From a virus, in the UHGV virus genome UHGV-1610946: a stretch of 13,320 nt of DNA. One strand, 5' to 3'. The notes beneath the pieces were generated by a model. The model saw only the letters and a program-made list of their open reading frames with translations, searched no databases and had not been told where the DNA came from. Below are positions 1,253 through 12,837 of this stretch, one piece after another; the first letter of the stretch is position 1, and the number at the start of each line of letters is the position of its first letter. Position numbers and translations under genes: made by a program.

Positions 1253-2659
1253 ATGGCTGATATATCAACACCCAACCTCGACTATAACGATATGCTGGAG
1301 GCGTGGGATATTAACGACGCACTGATGGGCGGTACGCTTGAAATGCGCAGGCAGGGGGAAAATTATCTCCCAAAATGGCCTAACGAAGATGAAGACGCTT
1401 ATAAAAAACGCCTGTCTGTGGCTACGCTACTTCCTGTGTATGAAGAAAGCATCAAGCAAAATATTGGGCGCATATTTGCAGAGCCGACAGTATTGAGTGA
1501 GGAAACGCCGGCAAAAATCAGGGAATATGCAGAAAATATCGACATGGAGGGAAGCCGACTGGATGTGTGGGCGCAGCAATTTTTCAGCCTCGCATTTCAG
1601 TATGGTGTGGCACATGCGCTGGTGGACTATCCACGAACGGATATGAAAGAGATTCGGACAAAAGCCGATGAAAACGCGGCCGGTAGTCGTCCGTACGTTA
1701 CGATGCTGAATCCACGCCAGGTTATTGGATGGAAATCGAAAGTTGAAAAAGGGAAAGTTGTTCTCACTGATTTGCGTATAAAAGAGGTCATCATTATTGA
1801 TGGTGATGATTTCGGGCAGAAGAAGGTGGAGCAGATCCGCCATATTATGCCCCGTCGAGTTGAAATTTATCGACGTAGCGAAGGCACTAATGGCGAATCT
1901 GTCTGGACGCTTCATGAGTCATGGAATACCAGCCGTGATGATATTCCTCTGGTAACACTGTACACGAAGAAAACAGGATTTATGCGTGGTACACCGCCAT
2001 TGCTTAATCTTGGCTTGCTGAATATCAAGCACTGGCAAAGCCAGAGCGAGCAGGACAATATTCTTCATGTTGCCCGCGTTCCATTGCTGGTGGCCTACGG
2101 GCTGGACAGGAATGAAGAACTGACGGTTGGTGCATCCACCGCTACGATTTTTGAGGACAGAACAAAAAATGGCCTCGAATATGTTGAACATAGTGGCGCA
2201 GCGATAGAATCTGGCGAAACATCACTTGAGAAGCTGGAAAATCAGATGCGTCATGCCGGCGCTAAACTTCTGCGTGCTGAAAATACATCCACCAAATCTG
2301 TTGATCAGACTAATGAAGAGCGAATGCAGGAAAACTCGCCGCTTTATACAATGGCGAACTCCCTCGAAGATGCCCTCGATAATATTCTCCAGATAATGGC
2401 GGAATGGATCGGAGAGAGTTGCGGTGGCAATGTGGATGTGCGCACTGAACTGGATGTATCTGCCCAGGTGTTTGACTCATCCTCCGCGCTGGCTGTTCAG
2501 TCATTGCGTCAGGGCGGTGATATACGTCAGATTGATGCGATTCGGGTGTTGCAGGCGTTGAAATTTATCGATCAGGATTCCCGTCCAGAGGAAGTGATCG
2601 ATGAATTAAAAAATCAGAGTGTAATGCTGATGGAAATCAATGATGCAAACCGTGAATGA
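1253..2659 (+). CDS. Portal protein (putative)
   Basis: 468-aa ORF starting 2 nt after the terminase stop and lying between TerL and the MuF-like gene, the canonical portal position. Size fits portal proteins. No diagnostic motif was verified from memory. Confidence 0.7.
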   Translation: MADISTPNLDYNDMLEAWDINDALMGGTLEMRRQGENYLPKWPNEDEDAYKKRLSVATLLPVYEESIKQNIGRIFAEPTVLSEETPAKIREYAENIDMEGSRLDVWAQQFFSLAFQYGVAHALVDYPRTDMKEIRTKADENAAGSRPYVTMLNPRQVIGWKSKVEKGKVVLTDLRIKEVIIIDGDDFGQKKVEQIRHIMPRRVEIYRRSEGTNGESVWTLHESWNTSRDDIPLVTLYTKKTGFMRGTPPLLNLGLLNIKHWQSQSEQDNILHVARVPLLVAYGLDRNEELTVGASTATIFEDRTKNGLEYVEHSGAAIESGETSLEKLENQMRHAGAKLLRAENTSTKSVDQTNEERMQENSPLYTMANSLEDALDNILQIMAEWIGESCGGNVDVRTELDVSAQVFDSSSALAVQSLRQGGDIRQIDAIRVLQALKFIDQDSRPEEVIDELKNQSVMLMEINDANRE

Positions 2660-3755
2660 ACGGCTGCGTGATGAATCAATTGCTCATGCAGTCTGGATAT
2701 CCCGCTATAGCACTGGCGTGGCTGCCAGAATGGTGAAAATACTGAATGACAGCGATGCGGAACTTACTGCTCGCCTGCTGATAGCACTGGACAGCCTCGA
2801 TCCAGGTAGTTTTACCGTTAAGCGCCTGGAGTCACTTCTGGCGAGCGTCAGAGAGGTTAACCGCACTGCTATTAACAGCATGTTTACCAGTCTCTCCGGA
2901 GAGCTGAACGAGCTGGCAATTTATGAGGCTGGTTATCAGTTAAGTCTGTTTGATTCTATGCTACCTGATTTTGTTGCTGATGTTCACCCTCTGGTTGGTA
3001 TCTCTCCTGATGCACTTTATGCCGCTGCAATGGCGCGACCATTTCAGGGACGACTGCTCAGTGAGTGGGCCTCAGATCTTGAGGCGGATCGGCTCAGACG
3101 CATAACAAATACAGTGCGTCAGGGTTTTTTGCTGGGGGATACCAATGAGCAGATCGCAAGAAAAATTCGGGGACATGTCAGTAAGGGATTTCAGGATGGT
3201 GCATTGCAGATGAGCCGGGCTAATGCGGCCAGCATTGCAAAAACAGCGGTTGGACATCTTGCTGCTACTGCCCGTGAGAGTTTTGCCAGCGCGAATAATG
3301 ATTTGATTAAGGGTAAGCAATGGTTATCAACGCTTGATAATCGTACTACGCCACAATGTCGAATCAGGGATCGCCTCAAATATACGCTGAATAATAAACC
3401 TGTAGGTCACAGCGTGCCTTATTTGCAGGGGCCGGGAAAAATTCATTTCTGCTGCCGCTCAACGGAAACGTTCATTCTGAAATCAGCGAAGGAACTGGGT
3501 ATTGATGTTCGCGATATTTCCCCGGCTGAGCGGGCCAGCATGGATGGCGTGGTGGCCGGAGATACAACCTACAGGGAATGGTTTTTGCGTCAGCCTTACA
3601 CCAGACAAAAACAGATTGTGGGGGAAACCCGAGCAAAGCTGATTCGGGATGGTGGTATGTCGCCAGATGAATTTTACACCGATAAAGGCGAATGGCTGAC
3701 GCTGAAGCAGCTCCGTGAGCGTGATGCACAGGTATTCAGAAAAGCAGGGATTTAA
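2640..3755 (+). CDS. Head morphogenesis protein, Mu F-like / SPP1 gp7 family
   Basis: 371-aa ORF overlapping the portal stop by 20 nt. Contains LDNRTTPQCR, which resembles the conserved motif of Phage_Mu_F-type proteins. Position between portal and scaffold is typical. The start could instead be a downstream in-frame codon. Confidence 0.75.
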   Translation: MMQTVNERLRDESIAHAVWISRYSTGVAARMVKILNDSDAELTARLLIALDSLDPGSFTVKRLESLLASVREVNRTAINSMFTSLSGELNELAIYEAGYQLSLFDSMLPDFVADVHPLVGISPDALYAAAMARPFQGRLLSEWASDLEADRLRRITNTVRQGFLLGDTNEQIARKIRGHVSKGFQDGALQMSRANAASIAKTAVGHLAATARESFASANNDLIKGKQWLSTLDNRTTPQCRIRDRLKYTLNNKPVGHSVPYLQGPGKIHFCCRSTETFILKSAKELGIDVRDISPAERASMDGVVAGDTTYREWFLRQPYTRQKQIVGETRAKLIRDGGMSPDEFYTDKGEWLTLKQLRERDAQVFRKAGI

Positions 3756-3774
3756 ATAAATCATTTATTACAAC

Positions 3775-3802
3775 AGGCTACCTTCGGGTGGCCTTTTTTA
3801 TT
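3775..3802 (+). terminator. Intrinsic-terminator-like hairpin (7-bp stem, cUUCGg tetraloop, T6 run)
   Basis: GGCTACC(3776-3782) TTCG GGTGGCC(3787-3793) pairs as a 7-bp stem including one G-U wobble, followed directly by TTTTTTATT. Lies 20 nt after the MuF-like stop. Confidence 0.6.
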
Positions 3803-3859
3803 GCTGCGATCCGGATGGTGAGCAGCGTAACTGTCGGAAGACTTAAACCAGGTACTAAT

Positions 3860-4624
3860 ATGAAACTGAAAACGGTCGAGATTAACGGAAAACAATACGC
3901 AGAAATTGATACTGCTGGCCTGCCAGTTTATGTGCACGACGATGGTAAAGAAATTGGCTTCGATGCACCGCTGGCGACAAAAAAAATTACAGAGCTTAAT
4001 AGCGAGGCAAAAAATCATCGCCTGGCTAAAGAAGCTGCAGAGGAAAAACTGGCTAAGTTTGCCGCTATCGAAGACCCGAAGAAGGCGATCGAGGCACTGG
4101 AAATGCTGTCAAAAATCGACCAGAAAAAGCTGCTCGATGCGGGACAGGTTGACCAGGTTAAGGCAGAAATTACGAAAAATTTTCAGCAGCAATTAGATGA
4201 AGAAAAGCAACGCTCTCAGATGCTGGAGAAGCAGCTTTACGATTCTATGATTGGCGGTAGTTTTGCGGGTTCAAAATATATTGCCGATAAAATTGCGATC
4301 CCGGCAGATTTATTACAATCACGCTTCGGGCAGGCATTCAAAGTGGAAGAAGGGAGGATCGTTGCTTATGACGCTTCCGGCAACAAAATTTATTCCCGCG
4401 CGAAGCCTGGCGAACTGGCGCAGTTTGATGAGGCGCTGGAGTTCCTTGTCGAAAATTACCCTCAGAAAGACTACATCCTGAAAGCCAGTGGCAACAATGG
4501 CGGCGGCTCCCGTCCGACACAGCATGATATTGGTCAGAAAACGATGAAACGCTCTGCTTTTGATGCACTGGATGTTGCAGGTAAGCAAAACGCATTGAAA
4601 GACGGTATCACAATCGTTGATTAA
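3860..4624 (+). CDS. Putative head scaffolding protein
   Basis: Lies between the MuF-like gene and the major capsid gene. The product is rich in charged residues, with heptad-like stretches (KEAAEEKLAKFAAIEDPKKAIEALEMLSKIDQKKL) typical of scaffold proteins. Start is uncertain: the listed ORF begins at 3788 inside the terminator hairpin, which is implausible; in-frame ATGs occur at 3815 and 3860, the latter with a weak AGG upstream. Confidence 0.5.
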   Translation: MKLKTVEINGKQYAEIDTAGLPVYVHDDGKEIGFDAPLATKKITELNSEAKNHRLAKEAAEEKLAKFAAIEDPKKAIEALEMLSKIDQKKLLDAGQVDQVKAEITKNFQQQLDEEKQRSQMLEKQLYDSMIGGSFAGSKYIADKIAIPADLLQSRFGQAFKVEEGRIVAYDASGNKIYSRAKPGELAQFDEALEFLVENYPQKDYILKASGNNGGGSRPTQHDIGQKTMKRSAFDALDVAGKQNALKDGITIVD

Positions 4625-4633
4625 CACATTTGT

Positions 4634-4653
4634 CAGCTTCCGGATGGGAGCTG
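4634..4653 (+). other. Stable hairpin in the scaffold-capsid intergenic region (8-bp stem, GGAT loop, no T-run)
   Basis: CAGCTTCC(4634-4641) GGAT GGGAGCTG(4646-4653) gives seven Watson-Crick pairs plus one G-U. Begins 10 nt after the scaffold stop. No U-tract follows, so it is not a canonical terminator. Confidence 0.35.
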
Positions 4654-4722
4654 GTGTCAGGGCTGGATAGCTCATTACTCCATCTATTCACAATTACGCA
4701 AATTTTTAAGGAATATTTAATT

Positions 4723-5862
4723 ATGGCTGGAAATACCCTGACCGGGTTGATCCCGACTATTTATACCGCCCTGGATGTTGTATCCCGTGAGCAGGTAGGT
4801 TTTATCCCTGCGGTAGCAAAAAACGCAAAAGCTGACGCCGCAGCAAAAGATCAGACGGTAACCGCGCCAGTTGCGCCTGAGGCGAAAACCGAAGATATCG
4901 TACCGGGGCCGTCAGCTCCGAATACCGGTGATCAAAATATTGGCACTGTTGATGTAAAAATTACTAAATCCAAAATGGCACCGGTTAAATGGAATGGTGA
5001 AGAACAACTGGCTCTTGGTCCTTCAGGGACTTACAACACCATTCTGGCTGATCAGTTCAAGCAGGCTTTTCGCGCCCTTGCAAACGAGGTTGAGGCTGAT
5101 CTTGGTGCGTTGTATTTCGGTGCTTCCCGCGCCGTGGGAACCGCAGGGACAACGCCGTTTGGTGTTAAAGATGATCTTTCTGATGCTGCTCTGGCTCGTC
5201 AGGTTCTGGAGGATAACGGCGCACCGACAACCGATCTGCAGATGGTGCTTGGCTCCACTGCCATTGCTAATTTGCGCGGAAAACAGTCTGTATTGTTTAA
5301 AGTGAATGAATCCGGCACTGAACAGCTACTGCGTGAGGGCGTGTTGGGGCGTCTGGAGGGATTCAATATTCACAGTTCGGCAGGTGTGAAACGAGCGCCA
5401 AAGGTTGCTGCAACTGGTTATCTCGTGAATGGAGAGAAAAAAGAAGGCGATGTTCTTATTTCCATTGATACTGGTTCGGGGAGTATTTCTGCAGGTCAGA
5501 TTGTTACGTTCGCTGGTGATCCGAATCAGTATGTTGTGGCAGCAGCGACCAGCAATCTGATTACTCTTGCAGCGCCCGGACTGCGTCAGGATCTGGCCGA
5601 TGATACTGCCATCACAGTTGTTGGGGCCTTTACTGCAAATATGGCGTTTGATCGCAACGCGTTTCTGCTGGCATCCCGTACTCCGGCAATGCCGGAAGGT
5701 GGCGATAATGCTGATGATGTAATGAATGTTACGGACCCGATTTCAGGGATTACGTTCCAGATTGCACTGTATCGTCAGTATCGCCAGGTGCGCTATGAAG
5801 TTGGACTGGCATGGGGTGTTTCATCAGTGAAGCCGGCACATGGTTGTCTGATTCTTGGTTAA
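4723..5862 (+). CDS. Major capsid protein (putative)
   Basis: 379 aa from ATG 4723, which has a good Shine-Dalgarno (AAGGA at 4708-4712, 10-nt spacer). The listed ORF starts at 4630 with no RBS. Position is immediately after the scaffold gene. Family assignment is from context only. Confidence 0.65.
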   Translation: MAGNTLTGLIPTIYTALDVVSREQVGFIPAVAKNAKADAAAKDQTVTAPVAPEAKTEDIVPGPSAPNTGDQNIGTVDVKITKSKMAPVKWNGEEQLALGPSGTYNTILADQFKQAFRALANEVEADLGALYFGASRAVGTAGTTPFGVKDDLSDAALARQVLEDNGAPTTDLQMVLGSTAIANLRGKQSVLFKVNESGTEQLLREGVLGRLEGFNIHSSAGVKRAPKVAATGYLVNGEKKEGDVLISIDTGSGSISAGQIVTFAGDPNQYVVAAATSNLITLAAPGLRQDLADDTAITVVGAFTANMAFDRNAFLLASRTPAMPEGGDNADDVMNVTDPISGITFQIALYRQYRQVRYEVGLAWGVSSVKPAHGCLILG

Positions 5863-5871
5863 ACATTCAAA

Positions 5872-5895
5872 CGGGGCTTCGGCCCCATTTTTAAT
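5872..5895 (+). terminator. Intrinsic-terminator-like hairpin (5-bp GC stem, cUUCGg tetraloop, T5 run)
   Basis: GGGGC(5873-5877) TTCG GCCCC(5882-5886) followed by ATTTTTAAT. Lies 10 nt after the capsid stop. Confidence 0.6.
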
Positions 5896-5904
5896 GGGGG
5901 GCAT

Positions 5905-6081
5905 ATGGCCGGATTAACTAAAGAGCAAAGAGCACAGCGTGAAGCCGCACAAAAAACGCAAATTGAGTTAGTGGTTATGGTGACCGATTATCAGATGTTT
6001 CCCGGCGCACCAACTATCGCTAATGTTCATCCTGATGAAGTTGACAACTGGAAGGCTATGGGCTGGAAAACTCAGGAGTAA
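5905..6081 (+). CDS. Small hypothetical protein (58 aa), absent from the supplied ORF track
   Basis: ATG 5905 is preceded by a G6 run (5896-5901). The frame is open for 58 codons (MAGLTKEQRAQREAAQKTQIELVVMVTDYQMFPGAPTIANVHPDEVDNWKAMGWKTQE) to TAA 6079-6081, and the next gene's Shine-Dalgarno (AGGAG) overlaps its last codons. It fills an otherwise non-coding gap between the capsid and connector genes. Confidence 0.4.
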   Translation: MAGLTKEQRAQREAAQKTQIELVVMVTDYQMFPGAPTIANVHPDEVDNWKAMGWKTQE

Positions 6082-6084
6082 CAC

Positions 6085-6480
6085 ATGATCACTTACGTGA
6101 CCTGTGATGACGTTGATAATGCGTTTGGGAACGCCTGGACGAGTGAGAACGCTAAAAATAAAGCTGTTTTAATGGCTAATGCCTGGCTTAATGGCTTCAA
6201 CCTGAAAATTAACCCATCCCGTATTCCGGAAGAGGTAAAACTTGCGGGAGCATATGCAGCCAGAATTGCCTCATTTGGTAAGTTGTTTCAGCAGAAAAAT
6301 GATTCTGGCGTTGTTATCAGTAAAGCCGTGTCGGCTGACGGGGTCAGTGTATCGAAATCATTTTCTGAGTTGCCAGCAAACAGCACTGCATTGCTTGAAC
6401 CCGATTTACAGCTTGCGATAGCACTGCTGAAACCGTACGGACTTAGTCGCTCACAAGTCAGGGTTGTGAGGGGGGGATAA
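6085..6480 (+). CDS. Putative head-tail connector / head completion protein
   Basis: 131-aa ORF with Shine-Dalgarno AGGAG 6 nt upstream. It is the first of four small, translationally coupled genes between capsid and major tail, the canonical position for gp6-like connector proteins. No motif verified. Confidence 0.45.
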   Translation: MITYVTCDDVDNAFGNAWTSENAKNKAVLMANAWLNGFNLKINPSRIPEEVKLAGAYAARIASFGKLFQQKNDSGVVISKAVSADGVSVSKSFSELPANSTALLEPDLQLAIALLKPYGLSRSQVRVVRGG

Positions 6481-8670: not shown

Positions 8671-9132
8671 ATGAGGTTATGGATGTTTATTCTTAATCAG
8701 AAAATTATCATCGGTGGAGAACGCTGGTTTACGCCAATGAAGGACTTAAAACCTGTAGACGGGTTAAAACTGTTGGTGGCAAGCAGCGATAACGATCAGT
8801 ATCGCTCCCGTAATGCATTAATCCGTCGTCACATTGAGAAAATGGATGCCAGTTTGCACGTCGGAACGAAGGAGTTTGATATTTCAAAGGTTTCCGAGGT
8901 AGATTCTGTTGATGATTTACTCATTGATAATGCTGCTCGTTATCTGCTGAAAGACTGGAAAGGGGTTGGTGAACTGGTTAATGGTGCTGAGGTTGCACTG
9001 GAATATACGCCAGAACGAGGGATCGCGCTGCTTAAGCAGAATCCAGAGTTGTACTGGCAGATCCTTGCAGAAGCAGCCAGCATCGCCCAGGGTAAAGAGC
9101 AGCAGAAGCAGGATACGATAAAAAAGCCATAG
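8671..9132 (+). CDS. Tail assembly chaperone (lambda gpG-like)
   Basis: 153-aa acidic ORF between the major tail and tape measure genes. A slippery heptamer lies 4 nt before its stop, and an overlapping -1 frame stays open for about 105 further codons. Start could instead be an in-frame ATG at 8683 or 8737. Confidence 0.6.
   Translation: MRLWMFILNQKIIIGGERWFTPMKDLKPVDGLKLLVASSDNDQYRSRNALIRRHIEKMDASLHVGTKEFDISKVSEVDSVDDLLIDNAARYLLKDWKGVGELVNGAEVALEYTPERGIALLKQNPELYWQILAEAASIAQGKEQQKQDTIKKP
9120..9126 (+). promoter_or_regulatory. Programmed -1 ribosomal frameshift slippery site A_AAA_AAG
   Basis: In the chaperone frame the codons are ATA AAA AAG CCA TAG. The heptamer A AAA AAG (9120-9126) is a classic Lys-tRNA slippery sequence. 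The -1 frame has no stop from 9096 to 9440. Confidence 0.6.
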
Positions 9133-9440
9133 CCGCCCAGCGGTGGTTATCGGAGTTCGGGGGAGAAAGGGGGGAAAAGGCAAGATGGAAGCGAGAAAAA
9201 CTCAGGTTGCCACCGATACCGGAACCAGAAATAGACCCGGTGCTTAAGGAATTGTTGTACGCCTATTCGGTAATATCCCGTGCCCGACGTTATGCTGGAA
9301 TGACCGGGGTGCCTTTGCCTTTATCTCTGACAGAGATAAATGAATATTTAGCCACTCATCCGGTATTGATTGAGCGCGATGAGTTTGAAGCAGTGATCTT
9401 TGCACTGGATGACCAGTATTTTCAGGATCAGTGTGTGTAG
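9123..9440 (+). CDS. Frameshift extension of the tail assembly chaperone (lambda gpT-like part of a G-T fusion)
   Basis: Frame is open from 9096 to the stop at 9438-9440 and is entered by a -1 slip at 9120-9126. The supplied ORF 9207..9440 has no ATG (it begins at TTG) and no RBS, consistent with expression only as a fusion. Predicted fusion is about 255 aa. Confidence 0.55.
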   Translation, partial: KAIAAQRWLSEFGGERGEKARWKREKLRLPPIPEPEIDPVLKELLYAYSVISRARRYAGMTGVPLPLSLTEINEYLATHPVLIERDEFEAVIFALDDQYFQDQCV

Positions 9441-9560
9441 TTGTTAATTACGTACACTCTGTTACAGAGATGTGATGGTGTCTTTAATTAAATCGATGAT
9501 GCTCCTGGAGAAAAGCATTGCGTGGCCTCGTAATCGCTATATCTACTATTATGTCGCCTG

Positions 9561-9587
9561 AAACCCACTTCGGTGGGCTTTTTGTTG
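9561..9587 (+). terminator. Terminator-like hairpin (5-bp stem, cUUCGg tetraloop, T5 run) upstream of the tape measure gene
   Basis: CCCAC(9564-9568) TTCG GTGGG(9573-9577) followed by CTTTTTGTTG. It lies in a 163-bp non-coding gap between the chaperone extension and the tape measure start, 17 nt before that gene's GGAG Shine-Dalgarno. Confidence 0.5.
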
Positions 9588-9603
9588 TCTGGAGTTTTAA
9601 TAA

Positions 9604-12600
9604 ATGGCAGAGCAAACCTCGCGTCTCGCAATAATTATTGATAGCACTGGAGCAAAAAATAATGCTGACAATCTGACCTCCTCATTAGTCAAAATGACGC
9701 AGGCCGGGGAAACTGCTGCAAATAGCGCAGGGAAAGTGACTAAGGCAACAGAAGATGAGAAGAACGCGCTCGCAAAATTAAAAGCAGCTATTGATCCAGT
9801 TGGTGCCGCAATTGATACTGTCGGTCGACGCTATTCTGAATTAAAGAAATTTTTCGATAAAGGGCTTATTGATAAAGAAGAATATGAATTTCTTGTCCGT
9901 AAACTTAATGAAACCACAGAGGAATTGAGCGGGGTTGCGCAAGCGCAGAGAGAAGCCGAGAAGGCCGGAAAACTTGCTGCCGCCCAGCAGGAAGCGCAGG
10001 CTCAGGCCTTTCAAAGAATGCTGGACAAGATCGACCCTCTGGCTGCGGCGCTAAGAAATCTTGAACAACAGCAGGATGAACTTAATGCTGCGTTTGCATC
10101 CGGGAAAATAAATGGTTCTCAGTTTGAGAATTATAGCCGAAAAATACAGGAAACACGGCGAGAGCTTACCGGAGAGGCTCAGGCAGAGCGAGAAGCAGCA
10201 AAAGCGCATGATGAACAGGTTGCTGCTTTGCAACGTCTGATTGCTCAACTTGACCCTGTCGGAACTGCTTTTAATCGTCTGGTAGAACAACAGAAACAGC
10301 TCAATGAAGCAAAAGCTAAGGGGATGCTCTCTCCTGAAATGTATGAGGAACTTTCTGGAAAACTTCGTGCTATGCGGAGTGAGCTTGAGGTTACTCAATC
10401 TCAATTAAGCAAAACCGGAATGTCGGCAAAACAAACGGCTTTTGCTATGCGCATGTTGCCTGCACAAATGACGGATATTGTTGTTGGGTTGTCCACTGGT
10501 CAGTCGCCTTTTATGGTGTTAATGCAGCAGGGCGGCCAGCTAAAAGATATGTTCGGTGGGATTGGCCCGGCGATCAAAGGTGTTGGTTCTTATGTGCTGG
10601 GATTAATTAATCCTTTTACCCTGGCCGCAGCAGCCGTTGGCGTCTTAGGGCTGGCTTACTATAAAGGCTCTCAGGAGCAGGACGAATTTAATAAATCTCT
10701 TATTCTTACCGGAAATCAGTTGGGGACAACCAGCGGGCAATTGGCCGATATAGCTCAACGTGCCGGGAATGCGGCTGATTCGACAACTGGCGCTGCGGCG
10801 GCAGTATTAAACCAGCTTGTGCGTTCGGGAAAGGTAGCGAGCAGTTCGCTGGAGCAAGTGACGACAGCGATAGTAAAAACGAGCGAAGTAACAGGAATAT
10901 CAACCGAACAACTGGTTAATGACTTCAATGAAATTGCAAAGGATCCTGTCAGTGCCATATCAAAACTTAATGATCAGTACCATTTTCTGACAATTGCGAC
11001 TTATAACCAGATTAAGGCGCTACAGGATGAAGGGAACCAGCAGGAGGCCGCCCGCATTGCGACAGAAGCATACTCATCCTCAATGATCCAGCGCACCAAC
11101 CAGATTAAAGAAAATCTTGGTTATCTTGAGGCTGCATGGAAAGCTGTCGCAGACTCCGCAAAATGGGCATGGGATTCCATGCTGGACATTGGCCGTGAGG
11201 CCTCCCTTGATCAAAAAATCTCAGATGTTCTCCGTCAAATTGATGAAATAGAAAAAAATACCCGACCCGGAGTTTTCGGGTTAGGTGGCATTGGAGATGG
11301 CGGAGCTCAAAATAAAAGGCTGGCACGATTAAAGCAGCAATTGGGCGTACTTCAAGCAGAAAAAATTGCTCAGGACGTCCTAAATTCATCAATAAACGAT
11401 TACAACAAGCGACAACAGGAAGGAATTGAACTCAGACAGAGAGCAGATGCCTTTTCAAAACAATATCAGACCCGGGAGCAGCAGAGAGCTAGTGAACTTG
11501 CAAAACTGGAAAAGCTAAAGAGTCAGTATTCAAAGGAAGAATATAATAATTTTATCGCTCAAATAAATGAGCGTTATAAAGATCCAAAGCAACCAAAGGC
11601 GAAAGGTTATTCGGATGATGCTGCCCAACGAATGATTGATCATCTGAATCAACAGAATGCGTTACTAAGTTCACAAACTGAATTAACCGTTAAATTAAGT
11701 TCCTCTGAACAGGAACTGGTTAAGTGGCGTCAGCAGATTGCCGACCTGGAGTCACGACCGTCATCGAAATTAACCCAGGATCAGAAATCGCTTCTCTTAC
11801 ACCGGGAAGAAATAACCGCGTTGATGGAGAAAAATGTTGCGATTGAAAAAAATAACAGGCTAATCAAGGAATCCGCCGAAATAGCTGCATGGCGTGATTT
11901 ATTGCAGGCTTCGATTGATAATCGTCAACAGGGGTATGATATTCAGATTGCTGGTTATGGGGTTGGCGATAAAAATCAGCAACGCCAGCAGGAATTACTG
12001 CGGATTGAACGTGAATATAACAATCAGCGTCTGCAACTTGAACGTGACTATGCAGATAAATCCCGTGGGATGTCAAATCATGTTTTTCAGGAGAAAATGC
12101 AGGCTCTGAATGATGCTCTGGAACGAGAAAAAGAAATTGTCAGACAGAAAAACGAGCAGCTCGATATTCAGGCAGGAGACTGGGTTAGTGGTGCCTCCCA
12201 GGGATTCAATAACTGGCTGGATGACACTAAGGATATCAGTGAGCAGATAAAATCAACCACGACTCAGATGTTTGATGGAATGACCGATGCGCTGGGTGAT
12301 TTTGTCACGACAGGCAAGGCAAATTTTCGTTCTTTCGCTACTTCCGTGATTTCGGATCTTAGTCGAATAGCATTAAAGGCTTCAATTACTGGGATTTTCG
12401 ACAGCATTAGTAACAGTTCTTCGGGGGGGATTTTAGGAACTATCGGGAGTGCTATTAGTAAATTTATTCCGAATGCAAAGGGCGGTGTTTATGAGTCTCC
12501 GTCATTGAACACGTATTCGAACGGTATTTATGATTCCCCGCAATTTTTTGCTTTTGCAAAAGGGGCTGGTGTTTTTGGTGAGGCTGGTCCGGAAGCCATT

Positions 12601-12837
12601 ATGCCATTAACACGAACATCCGATGGTTCTCTTGGTGTCAGAGCTATTAATAGTAAAAGTGGTAATGGAGGCGGAGATATTACCTATGCCCCTGTATACC
12701 AAATCACTATTCAAAATGACGGCCAGAATGGAGAGATTGGCCCTCAGGCAATAAAAGCACTTATGGGGATGGTTGATCAGCGGGTGCAGGGCAATCTGTT
12801 AAATATGCGACGTGATGGGGGAATGTTAAGTGGCTAA
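9604..12837 (+). CDS. Tail tape measure protein (lambda gpH-like)
   Basis: 1077-aa ORF with Shine-Dalgarno GGAG 9 nt upstream, lying immediately downstream of the frameshifted chaperone pair and upstream of gpM/gpL homologues. It has a long coiled-coil-like N-terminal region with three internal repeats of roughly 70-80 aa, a hydrophobic Gly/Ala-rich segment ([35 protein letters not shown]), and a C-terminal [11 protein letters not shown] segment that resembles lambda-family tape measure C-termini as I recall them. Confidence 0.9.

Follow-up and report, generated by a model that had tools for sequence, protein, structure and literature searches.

In the paradigm established for phage lambda, RNA polymerase modified by the Q antiterminator reads through all downstream terminators, and the intrinsic terminators of the lambda late operon, tR' and the sites beyond it, are passed in this way. 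Internal terminators of Q-dependent late operons are a recognised kind of element, and so are the stem-loops that follow phage capsid genes. Phage HK639 (HM208537), which encodes Q, has an annotated terminator (GGUCGC-UUCG-GCGGCC-U6) directly before the leader of its scaffold gene, with five more annotated terminators in the late operon. In P22 the stem-loop AGGGGC-UGCG-GCCCCU follows gene 5 and is annotated in RefSeq as 'similar in location to stem-loops in phage HK97 and phage lambda', and in lambda AUGGCCC-UUCG-GGGCCAU lies 2 nt past gene E. Hairpins of the C(UUCG)G type, which have the usual stable terminator loop, were reportedly seen first in the intercistronic regions of phage T4, and UUCG loops are reported to be in excess in the Rho-independent terminators of E. 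coli, in the work of Tuerk and colleagues in 1988 and of d'Aubenton Carafa and colleagues in 1990. We found no experimental test of internal late-operon terminators or of post-capsid stem-loops in the literature, and searches on HK639 terminators, CsrA and phage capsid genes, UUCG in terminators and lambda late-transcript hairpins returned nothing directly on point.

The DNA analysed here is a stretch of 13,320 nucleotides from virus genome UHGV-1610946 (referred to as the window) that represents the late region of a Rac-like lambdoid prophage of E. coli in which the head genes are retained. All of its genes are on the + strand. The terminase large subunit gene, which starts upstream of the window, runs to 1250 and is followed by a portal gene (DUF4055; 1253-2659), a MuF-like head morphogenesis gene (2640-3755; PF04233, E 1.3e-8; phrog_241, E 3e-183), a scaffold-like gene (DUF6651/phrog_206; 3860-4624), the major capsid gene of the P22-coat type (4724-5862; PF11651), head-completion and tail genes, a tail assembly chaperone pair (8671-9440) and the tape measure gene (9604-12837). 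These profile matches agree with the gene context given by the initial annotation, in which a MuF-like gene, a scaffold gene and a capsid gene succeed each other in a co-directional late operon. Searching PDB sequences with an alignment of the scaffold gave no meaningful match. Positions 2600-6100 are 100% identical to Escherichia phage vB_EcoS-683R6 and its relatives, and the vB_EcoS-683R6 record has, upstream of the matching region, the Q antiterminator, tRNAs, lysis genes, trkG, a ParB-like gene and the terminase genes, all co-directional. In the record ON470595, which is 100% identical over 2600-6100, Q is annotated ahead of the lysis and morphogenesis genes, all co-directional, and strong hairpins followed by T tracts stand 80-110 nt and about 870 nt past Q; this is the arrangement of a Q-antiterminated lambdoid late operon, in which Q and a terminator close behind it precede a series of co-directional genes. 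With Q located upstream of co-directional late genes, read-through by antitermination is the expected mode of transcription, as the initial annotation had presumed.

Between the MuF-like and scaffold genes, in a spacer of 104 nt and 19 nt past the MuF stop codon, lies a hairpin, AGGCUACC-UUCG-GGUGGCCU (3775-3794, + strand), identified by folding, by terminator scans and by its conservation in relatives, and followed in the sequence by the U-tract U6 A UU (3795-3803, + strand); we refer to the two together as T1. The DNA reads AGGCTACC TTCG GGTGGCCT TTTTTATT at 3775-3802 and AGGCTACC TTCG GGTGGCCT TTTTTATTG when read to 3803. The architecture of an intrinsic terminator that had been described here, with hairpin, cUUCGg loop and six T, is present in full; the stem, given as 7 bp by a minor miscount, has 8 bp (5 G-C, 2 A-U and 1 G-U, the last a U-G wobble), and the UUCG loop is closed by a C-G pair. 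The six T (3795-3800) begin at the first base past the stem and are followed by A and TT. As in intrinsic terminators, the stem is GC-rich and within about 5-14 bp, the loop is within 3-8 nt, and the element follows a stop codon on the strand that is transcribed. T1 belongs to a kind of element that is already known, and its closest described counterpart is the HK639 terminator, which occupies the equivalent position before a homologous scaffold leader and has the same architecture, strand and operon type. The difference is that a small ORF separates MuF from the terminator in HK639, whereas T1 directly follows MuF. Nothing comparable to T1 stands before the scaffold genes of P22 and lambda; in P22 the spacer is only 13 nt long.

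Two further hairpins with cUUCGg loops and U-rich tails, also reported in the initial annotation, are found in the window. T2 (GGGGC-UUCG-GCCCC + AUUUUU; 5873-5892, hairpin 5873-5886, + strand) starts 10 nt past the capsid stop codon, and T3 (CCCAC-UUCG-GUGGG + CUUUUU; 9564-9583, hairpin 9564-9577, + strand) ends 20 nt before the tape-measure ATG at 9604; both have 5-bp stems and 4-nt loops. The claim that the three hairpins bracket the scaffold and capsid genes holds for T1 and T2, which flank the pair, and fails for T3, which instead precedes the tape measure gene. All three have U-tracts of the intrinsic-terminator type, and all three are intergenic, in a window of which roughly 4% is intergenic. 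They are among the top + strand terminator-like sites in a consensus scan and are picked out by a stricter scan that returned 5 + strand sites, against 1.2 in shuffles.

Could such hairpins have arisen by chance? Short GC hairpins are common and, when folded with their flanks, T2 (z -1.6) and T3 (z -1.0) are not distinguishable by energy alone from shuffled sequence. The same check, which the initial annotation had proposed, clearly sets T1 apart: its RNA has a minimum free energy of -13.8 kcal/mol, where shuffles average -6.4 (z -3.7), and 0 of 200 dinucleotide shuffles were as good. The window contains 3 hairpins that combine a UUCG loop, a stem of 4 bp or more and a tail with 4 or more T among its first 6 nt, where 0.034 are expected, and more than one was seen in 0 of 500 dinucleotide shuffles. 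Together with the position kept in related phages, described below, these results leave practically no room for a chance occurrence, which the comparative data refute.

Several other identities for the element were considered and rejected. A bidirectional terminator is contradicted by the - strand version, which has no U-tract, and by the absence of - strand genes. In MFE and centroid folds of 3745-3875, T1 folds alone, with no upstream competitor and an AU-rich stretch upstream of it, which speaks against the alternative pairing of a riboswitch or attenuator. There is no ORF between MuF and T1 in the window that could be read as a moron, an accessory gene equipped with a promoter and a terminator of its own. 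No match to the Rfam 15 covariance models was obtained for the window at E<=1, and the sole Rfam match in six relatives was a tRNA. Just upstream of T1, an AT-rich inverted repeat (GAUUU AAAU AAAUC, 3749-3762) overlaps the MuF stop codon and could be an AU-rich site of the RNase E type.

The comparison with related phages that the initial annotation had suggested was made on 63 loci from different species, retrieved via the scaffold protein, of which 55 could be analysed. In 47 of these 55 loci the last 150 nt before the scaffold ATG contain a strict hairpin with a T-tract, and only 98 other strict matches occur on the + strand across all 424 kb scanned. The position of T1 is kept across Enterobacterales, Acinetobacter, Haemophilus and Comamonas, with a considerable turnover of its sequence. 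Phages about 70% identical in the flanking genes retain T1 with UCCG or UACG loops, relatives show a compensatory change from A-U to G-C at stem pair 6, and the stems at this position vary by lineage (AGGCUGCC, GGUCGC, CCACC, CCGCC and others). Among 37 distinct sites the loop is UNCG in 22 and GNRA in 4; because UNCG loops are frequent at sites of this type, the cUUCGg loop shared by all three hairpins of the window is poor evidence for common descent or for a shared factor. The T at alignment columns 20-23 is invariant across 34 distinct sites, homologous or analogous, and 23 of the 34 have at stem pair 5 a U-G wobble that is compatible only with + strand RNA. Stem positions pair in 94% of cases, with 46 double-sided changes against 0-12 in slid controls, a count that is partly circular given that the sites were chosen by a hairpin finder.

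The stretch between the MuF stop codon and the scaffold ATG varies from 87 to 3087 nt in length, owing to frequent insertions of extra genes, all of them upstream of T1, whereas the leader-proximal terminator stays 52-91 nt from the scaffold ATG. T1 is coupled physically to the structured leader of the scaffold gene and not to the upstream gene. In Klebsiella phage ST974-OXA48phi18.2, MuF and T1 are shared and are followed by unrelated scaffold and capsid genes, and this swapped capsid region is again trailed by a hairpin with a U tail. Terminator-type elements therefore flank the scaffold-capsid pair throughout a very wide range of prophages, including those in which the two genes have been exchanged. 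The exact T1 region occurs in 796 of 5426 complete E. coli genomes (about 15%), including ETEC H10407, at about 887.9-888.2 kb of NC_017633.1.

With modest confidence, we take 3775-3803 to be probably a genuine Rho-independent terminator, one of three boundary terminators that would be read through by Q-modified polymerase, with hairpins that would double as 3' barriers on the RNA. During lytic growth, RNA polymerase modified by Q and coming from an upstream start would pass T1, T2 and T3, as the modified polymerase of lambda does at tR' and beyond. The three sites would then act mainly on polymerase that has not been antiterminated, that is, on prophage-state or read-through transcription, for instance from trkG or from genes inserted at the MuF-scaffold junction, and as boundary terminators they would shield the scaffold-capsid cassette, which is expressed very efficiently, and the tail genes from such transcription. 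On mRNA made by read-through, the hairpins would remain as stable internal stem-loops able to halt 3' exonucleases. No strict + strand terminator was found between the Q-proximal ones and T1, including after trkG, which makes T1 the first barrier before the cassette. In an intact Rac-like prophage, the region upstream of the part that corresponds to the window (L001, 4230-6275) likewise has no strict intrinsic terminator after trkG, and transcription of trkG could consequently run into the packaging genes.

An alternative is that these sites are partial terminators, or attenuators, which in lytic growth step down transcript abundance along the operon and so set protein stoichiometry. T2 and T3 do stand just before genes of lower-copy products (head completion and tape measure), weak U-tracts and nearby stop codons predict leaky termination, and leaky terminators are common in phages and have been found to tune expression in other phages (PMC9163698). 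The initial annotation had proposed such a role for T1 in setting the stoichiometry of the high-copy genes, and in this respect it is not supported. The consensus scan found no promoter-like site between T1 and the scaffold ATG, from which it follows that the scaffold and capsid genes are transcribed through T1 and that termination there cannot raise their level; it would lower scaffold and capsid relative to portal and MuF. T1, the strongest of the three, is upstream of the highest-copy genes, and attenuation at that point opposes the stoichiometry that is required. Moreover, Q lies upstream, and it is established for lambda that Q-modified polymerase ignores terminators of this kind. Attenuation in lytic growth is for these reasons quite unlikely in our judgement.

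As an internal terminator in a Q-dependent late operon, T1 adds one well-supported example to those known and alone matters little. Boundary termination is also not favoured by every observation. High-GC relatives (Dokdonella, Hyphomicrobium, Caulobacteraceae) keep the leader and lack the U-tract terminator, and this counts against it, as do the absence of a recognisable promoter at inserted genes and the behaviour of the post-capsid hairpin, both of which are described below.

T2 is near-identical in relatives and in P22, whose post-gene 5 stem-loop has nearly the same sequence, and it shares the cUUCGg loop with the hairpin past lambda gene E. A strict terminator-like hairpin, mostly GGGGC-UUCG-GCCCC, lies from -1 to 19 nt past the capsid stop codon (median 6) in 40 of the 55 loci, so that the comparison with related phages supports this site as well. 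Any stable hairpin after the capsid gene is present in 50 of the 55, whereas a U-rich tail is present in only 32-36, and since the hairpin is kept more often than the tail, selection at the post-capsid site may act on the hairpin rather than on termination, which counts against boundary termination. T2 is a post-capsid stem-loop in the sense of a stable hairpin no more than about 20 nt past the capsid stop codon, a category that does not apply to T1. In a tR2 reporter system, terminators close to stop codons are repressed by the terminating ribosome; as T2 has such a distance from its stop codon, it is expected to be leaky on translated mRNA (PMC4824070). The post-capsid hairpin would fit the role of a leaky terminator or of a 3' stabiliser, and under the boundary-terminator reading T2, about 10 nt past the capsid stop, would protect the 3' end of the scaffold-capsid segment and terminate only weakly.

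Intercistronic stabiliser hairpins, such as the REP sequences in malEFG, give differential mRNA stability within operons. T2 resembles these in being placed 3' of the gene for the most abundant product and in being kept even without a U-tract. T1 and most copies of T2 differ from them in carrying canonical U-tracts, which stabilisers do not need.

The position of T3 directly before the tape measure gene is also found, with a wholly different stem, in a Klebsiella phage. The T3 region is present in 1047 of the 5426 complete E. coli genomes, including K-12, where the Rac copy, at 1,412,822-1,412,844 of NZ_CP169634.1 on the + strand, reads ACCCAC-UUCGCG-GUGGGU-U6, with a UUCGCG loop and a longer U-tract. 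The non-coding 163-nt spacer before the tape measure, which includes T3 (window 9441-9603; L152 2541-2726), is 97.7% conserved in the K-12 Rac remnant, where it lies upstream of the ynaA/tmpR pseudogene. In the eLife 2021 supplements there is no entry for ydaY, tmpR, ynaK or the coordinates that would give a 3' end for the K-12 copy. A small ORF at about 9473-9561, before T3, was not borne out in the frames tested.

The MuF-scaffold junction (window 3756-3803; L003 3343-3876; L004 3354-3778; L086 3079-3299) is a hot spot for the insertion of ORFs and a breakpoint of mosaicism. Inserted ORFs bring a second terminator, the 3' half of which (GGCGGCCUUUUUUAUUAU) copies that of T1, and this copied half suggests recombination at the terminator. 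In the two cases examined (L003, L004), the ORFs inserted upstream of T1 showed no sigma-70-like promoter, which counts against insulation from inserted genes that have promoters of their own. The junction also raises the question of whether T1 is only a recombination linker or a relic at the border of two modules, with no regulatory role of its own in this phage. Phage homology breaks at T1 (window 3800-3803), insertions of up to 3 kb lie exactly at this junction, and the copied 3' half would be expected of a linker. A relic, however, would decay, and here the hairpin and U-tract persist with many different stems, in a wide range of hosts and in loci free of insertions, which makes this explanation very improbable.

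A conserved structured leader that was absent from the initial annotation begins directly 3' of the U-tract of T1. It consists of 2-3 hairpins with GGAU or GGAA tetraloops, with a second copy before the capsid gene. In the MFE fold of the window, hairpin A of the scaffold leader is GCUGC GAU CC-GGAU-GG UGA GCAGC (3803-3826, + strand) and hairpin B is GUC-GGAA-GAC (3833-3842, + strand; GGUC-GGAU-GACC in relatives). Before the capsid gene, hairpin A' is CAGCUUCC-GGAU-GGGAGCUG (4634-4653, + strand), kept with changed stems in L002, L004 and L085, and hairpin B' is GGGCU-GGAU-AGCUC (4660-4673, + strand). A compensatory change of CC/GG to CU/AG is found in hairpin A of L060. The leader also occurs in L002-L004 and L085-L149, in hosts ranging from Enterobacterales, E. 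coli among them, to Caulobacteraceae. GGAU is the commonest tetraloop of + strand hairpins of at least 4 bp in the 55 loci (129 occurrences against a mean of 35 per tetraloop), and 84 of the 129 fall in the scaffold and capsid leader spacers, about 3% of the sequence.

When 40 scaffold leaders were aligned, GGA proved invariant in the loops of both hairpin A and hairpin B and almost invariant in that of a third hairpin, C. Hairpins B and C were recovered independently by RNAalifold, with double-sided changes in 7 of 8 pairs. For the leader structure as a whole, pairing is found in 91.6% of cells, compared with 27-47% in slid controls, and there are 73 double-sided changes against 9-19, a level that 0 of 500 shuffles reached. 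A covariance model, R1, built without the class to which the window belongs, matches the window at 3787-3862 (28.4 bits, E 4e-6) and at 4611-4725 (E 9e-4); across 60 loci, all 68 of its 68 matches are on the + strand and before a scaffold or capsid gene. No R1 match was found in P22, lambda or the swapped-cassette phage. P22 was rejected as a model for the leader, its gene 8 having a spacer of 13 nt, no GGAU hairpins and no R1 match. The leader is apparently undescribed so far, and as a compact and strongly covarying element it is the part of this locus that is worth following, more so than T1 itself.

The constant neighbourhood of T1 and the leader allows another reading of T1, namely that its role is mainly post-transcriptional, as the 5' module of a single RNA element formed with the GGAU hairpins. 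RNase E may cut in the AU-rich stretch 3752-3774 and so leave T1 as a 5'-terminal stem-loop, in which case T1 and T2 would bracket a stable processed scaffold-capsid mRNA, or T1 may be part of a platform for protein binding. T1 constantly abuts hairpin A, whatever the upstream gene, and the segment between the U-tract and hairpin A is itself conserved, with the consensus UUUUUUAUGCCUGCCG. The covariation of the leader is strong, the motif occurs only before scaffold and capsid genes, and several relatives allow an alternative pairing between the 3' arm of T1 and the 5' arm of hairpin A. A stabiliser, however, needs no long U-tract, yet the U-tract is kept in nearly all gammaproteobacterial loci. 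The two elements are also separable: T1 is present without the GGAU leader in L153, and the leader is present without T1 in the high-GC hosts and in Erwinia phage Gungnir39. A mainly post-transcriptional T1 is in our view unlikely. The alternative pairing is seen in L094, L096 and L097 (about 3420-3445 in each), where it involves the 3' arm of T1 together with the U-tract; an example is the fold GCGGCC-UUUUUUAU-GGCCGC, at -12.4 kcal/mol, which is not evident in the window itself.

A related possibility, which we advance tentatively, leaves the terminator in place: T1 may be the 5' boundary of an undescribed and widespread cis-regulatory leader, composed of a terminator and then two or three 4-bp hairpins whose GGA(U) tetraloops are invariant, with a bound protein setting scaffold and capsid synthesis post-transcriptionally and T1 serving to insulate the leader or to define its 5' end. 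The candidates for this protein are host CsrA, the DUF6651 scaffold protein and a GGAU-specific endoribonuclease. The conserved pairing of T1 with the GGAU leader is a lead worth following, and the leader could offer a concrete handle on how the ratio of scaffold to coat protein is set post-transcriptionally in phages.

The leader resembles CsrA sites, as a candidate only. Like CsrA/RsmA arrays, it has GGA in the loops of short hairpins (<=4 bp) at several sites 10-30 nt apart, and the last of these is next to the Shine-Dalgarno sequence or contains it. The last leader hairpin adjoins the Shine-Dalgarno sequence in many loci and, in Acinetobacter, the loop of hairpin C is the Shine-Dalgarno sequence, whereas in the window 17 nt separate the scaffold ATG from hairpin B, which does not coincide with the Shine-Dalgarno sequence. 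The leader shares GGAUG with the CsrA SELEX consensus, RUACARGGAUGU (PMC7652899), and differs from the known arrays in that the ACA of this consensus is absent and in that its loops are tetraloops instead of the usual hexaloops. CsrA is uncommon in alpha- and betaproteobacteria (PMC12247646), and the GGAU motif is found in prophages of these groups as well. Because ACA is missing and the motif is present where CsrA is uncommon, a phage factor such as the DUF6651 protein would be an equally possible ligand. A precedent for control of this type is offered by P22, which has the same coat fold as the window phage and in which free scaffold would act on its own mRNA: the P22 scaffolding protein is said, from the work of Casjens and Adams and of Wyckoff and Casjens in 1985, to be autoregulated post-transcriptionally. 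P22 differs in that its gene 8 has no GGAU leader and in that the scaffold of the window belongs to the unrelated family DUF6651, for which we know of no RNA-binding activity.

The position of the leader and of T1 has a consequence for annotation, since GenBank relatives begin their scaffold and capsid ORFs inside these RNA elements. The scaffold ORF is annotated there from GTG 3788, which is inside the T1 hairpin, and T1 would then be coding as part of an N-terminal extension of the scaffold. This was rejected: phrog_784 aligns only from residue 25 of the 3788 ORF, and a Klebsiella relative has an in-frame stop within the supposed extension, from which the true start appears to be ATG 3860. 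The capsid ORF of the same relatives starts at TTG 4630, within the GGAU hairpins; phrog_283 aligns from residue 34 of this ORF, and the start is likely to be ATG 4724. Further downstream, the canonical -1 slippery heptamer A_AAA_AAG is present in the correct frame at 9120-9126, at the end of the first chaperone ORF (8671-9132), and the -1 frame is open over 9096-9440, matching the expectation for a frameshift of the G/GT type.
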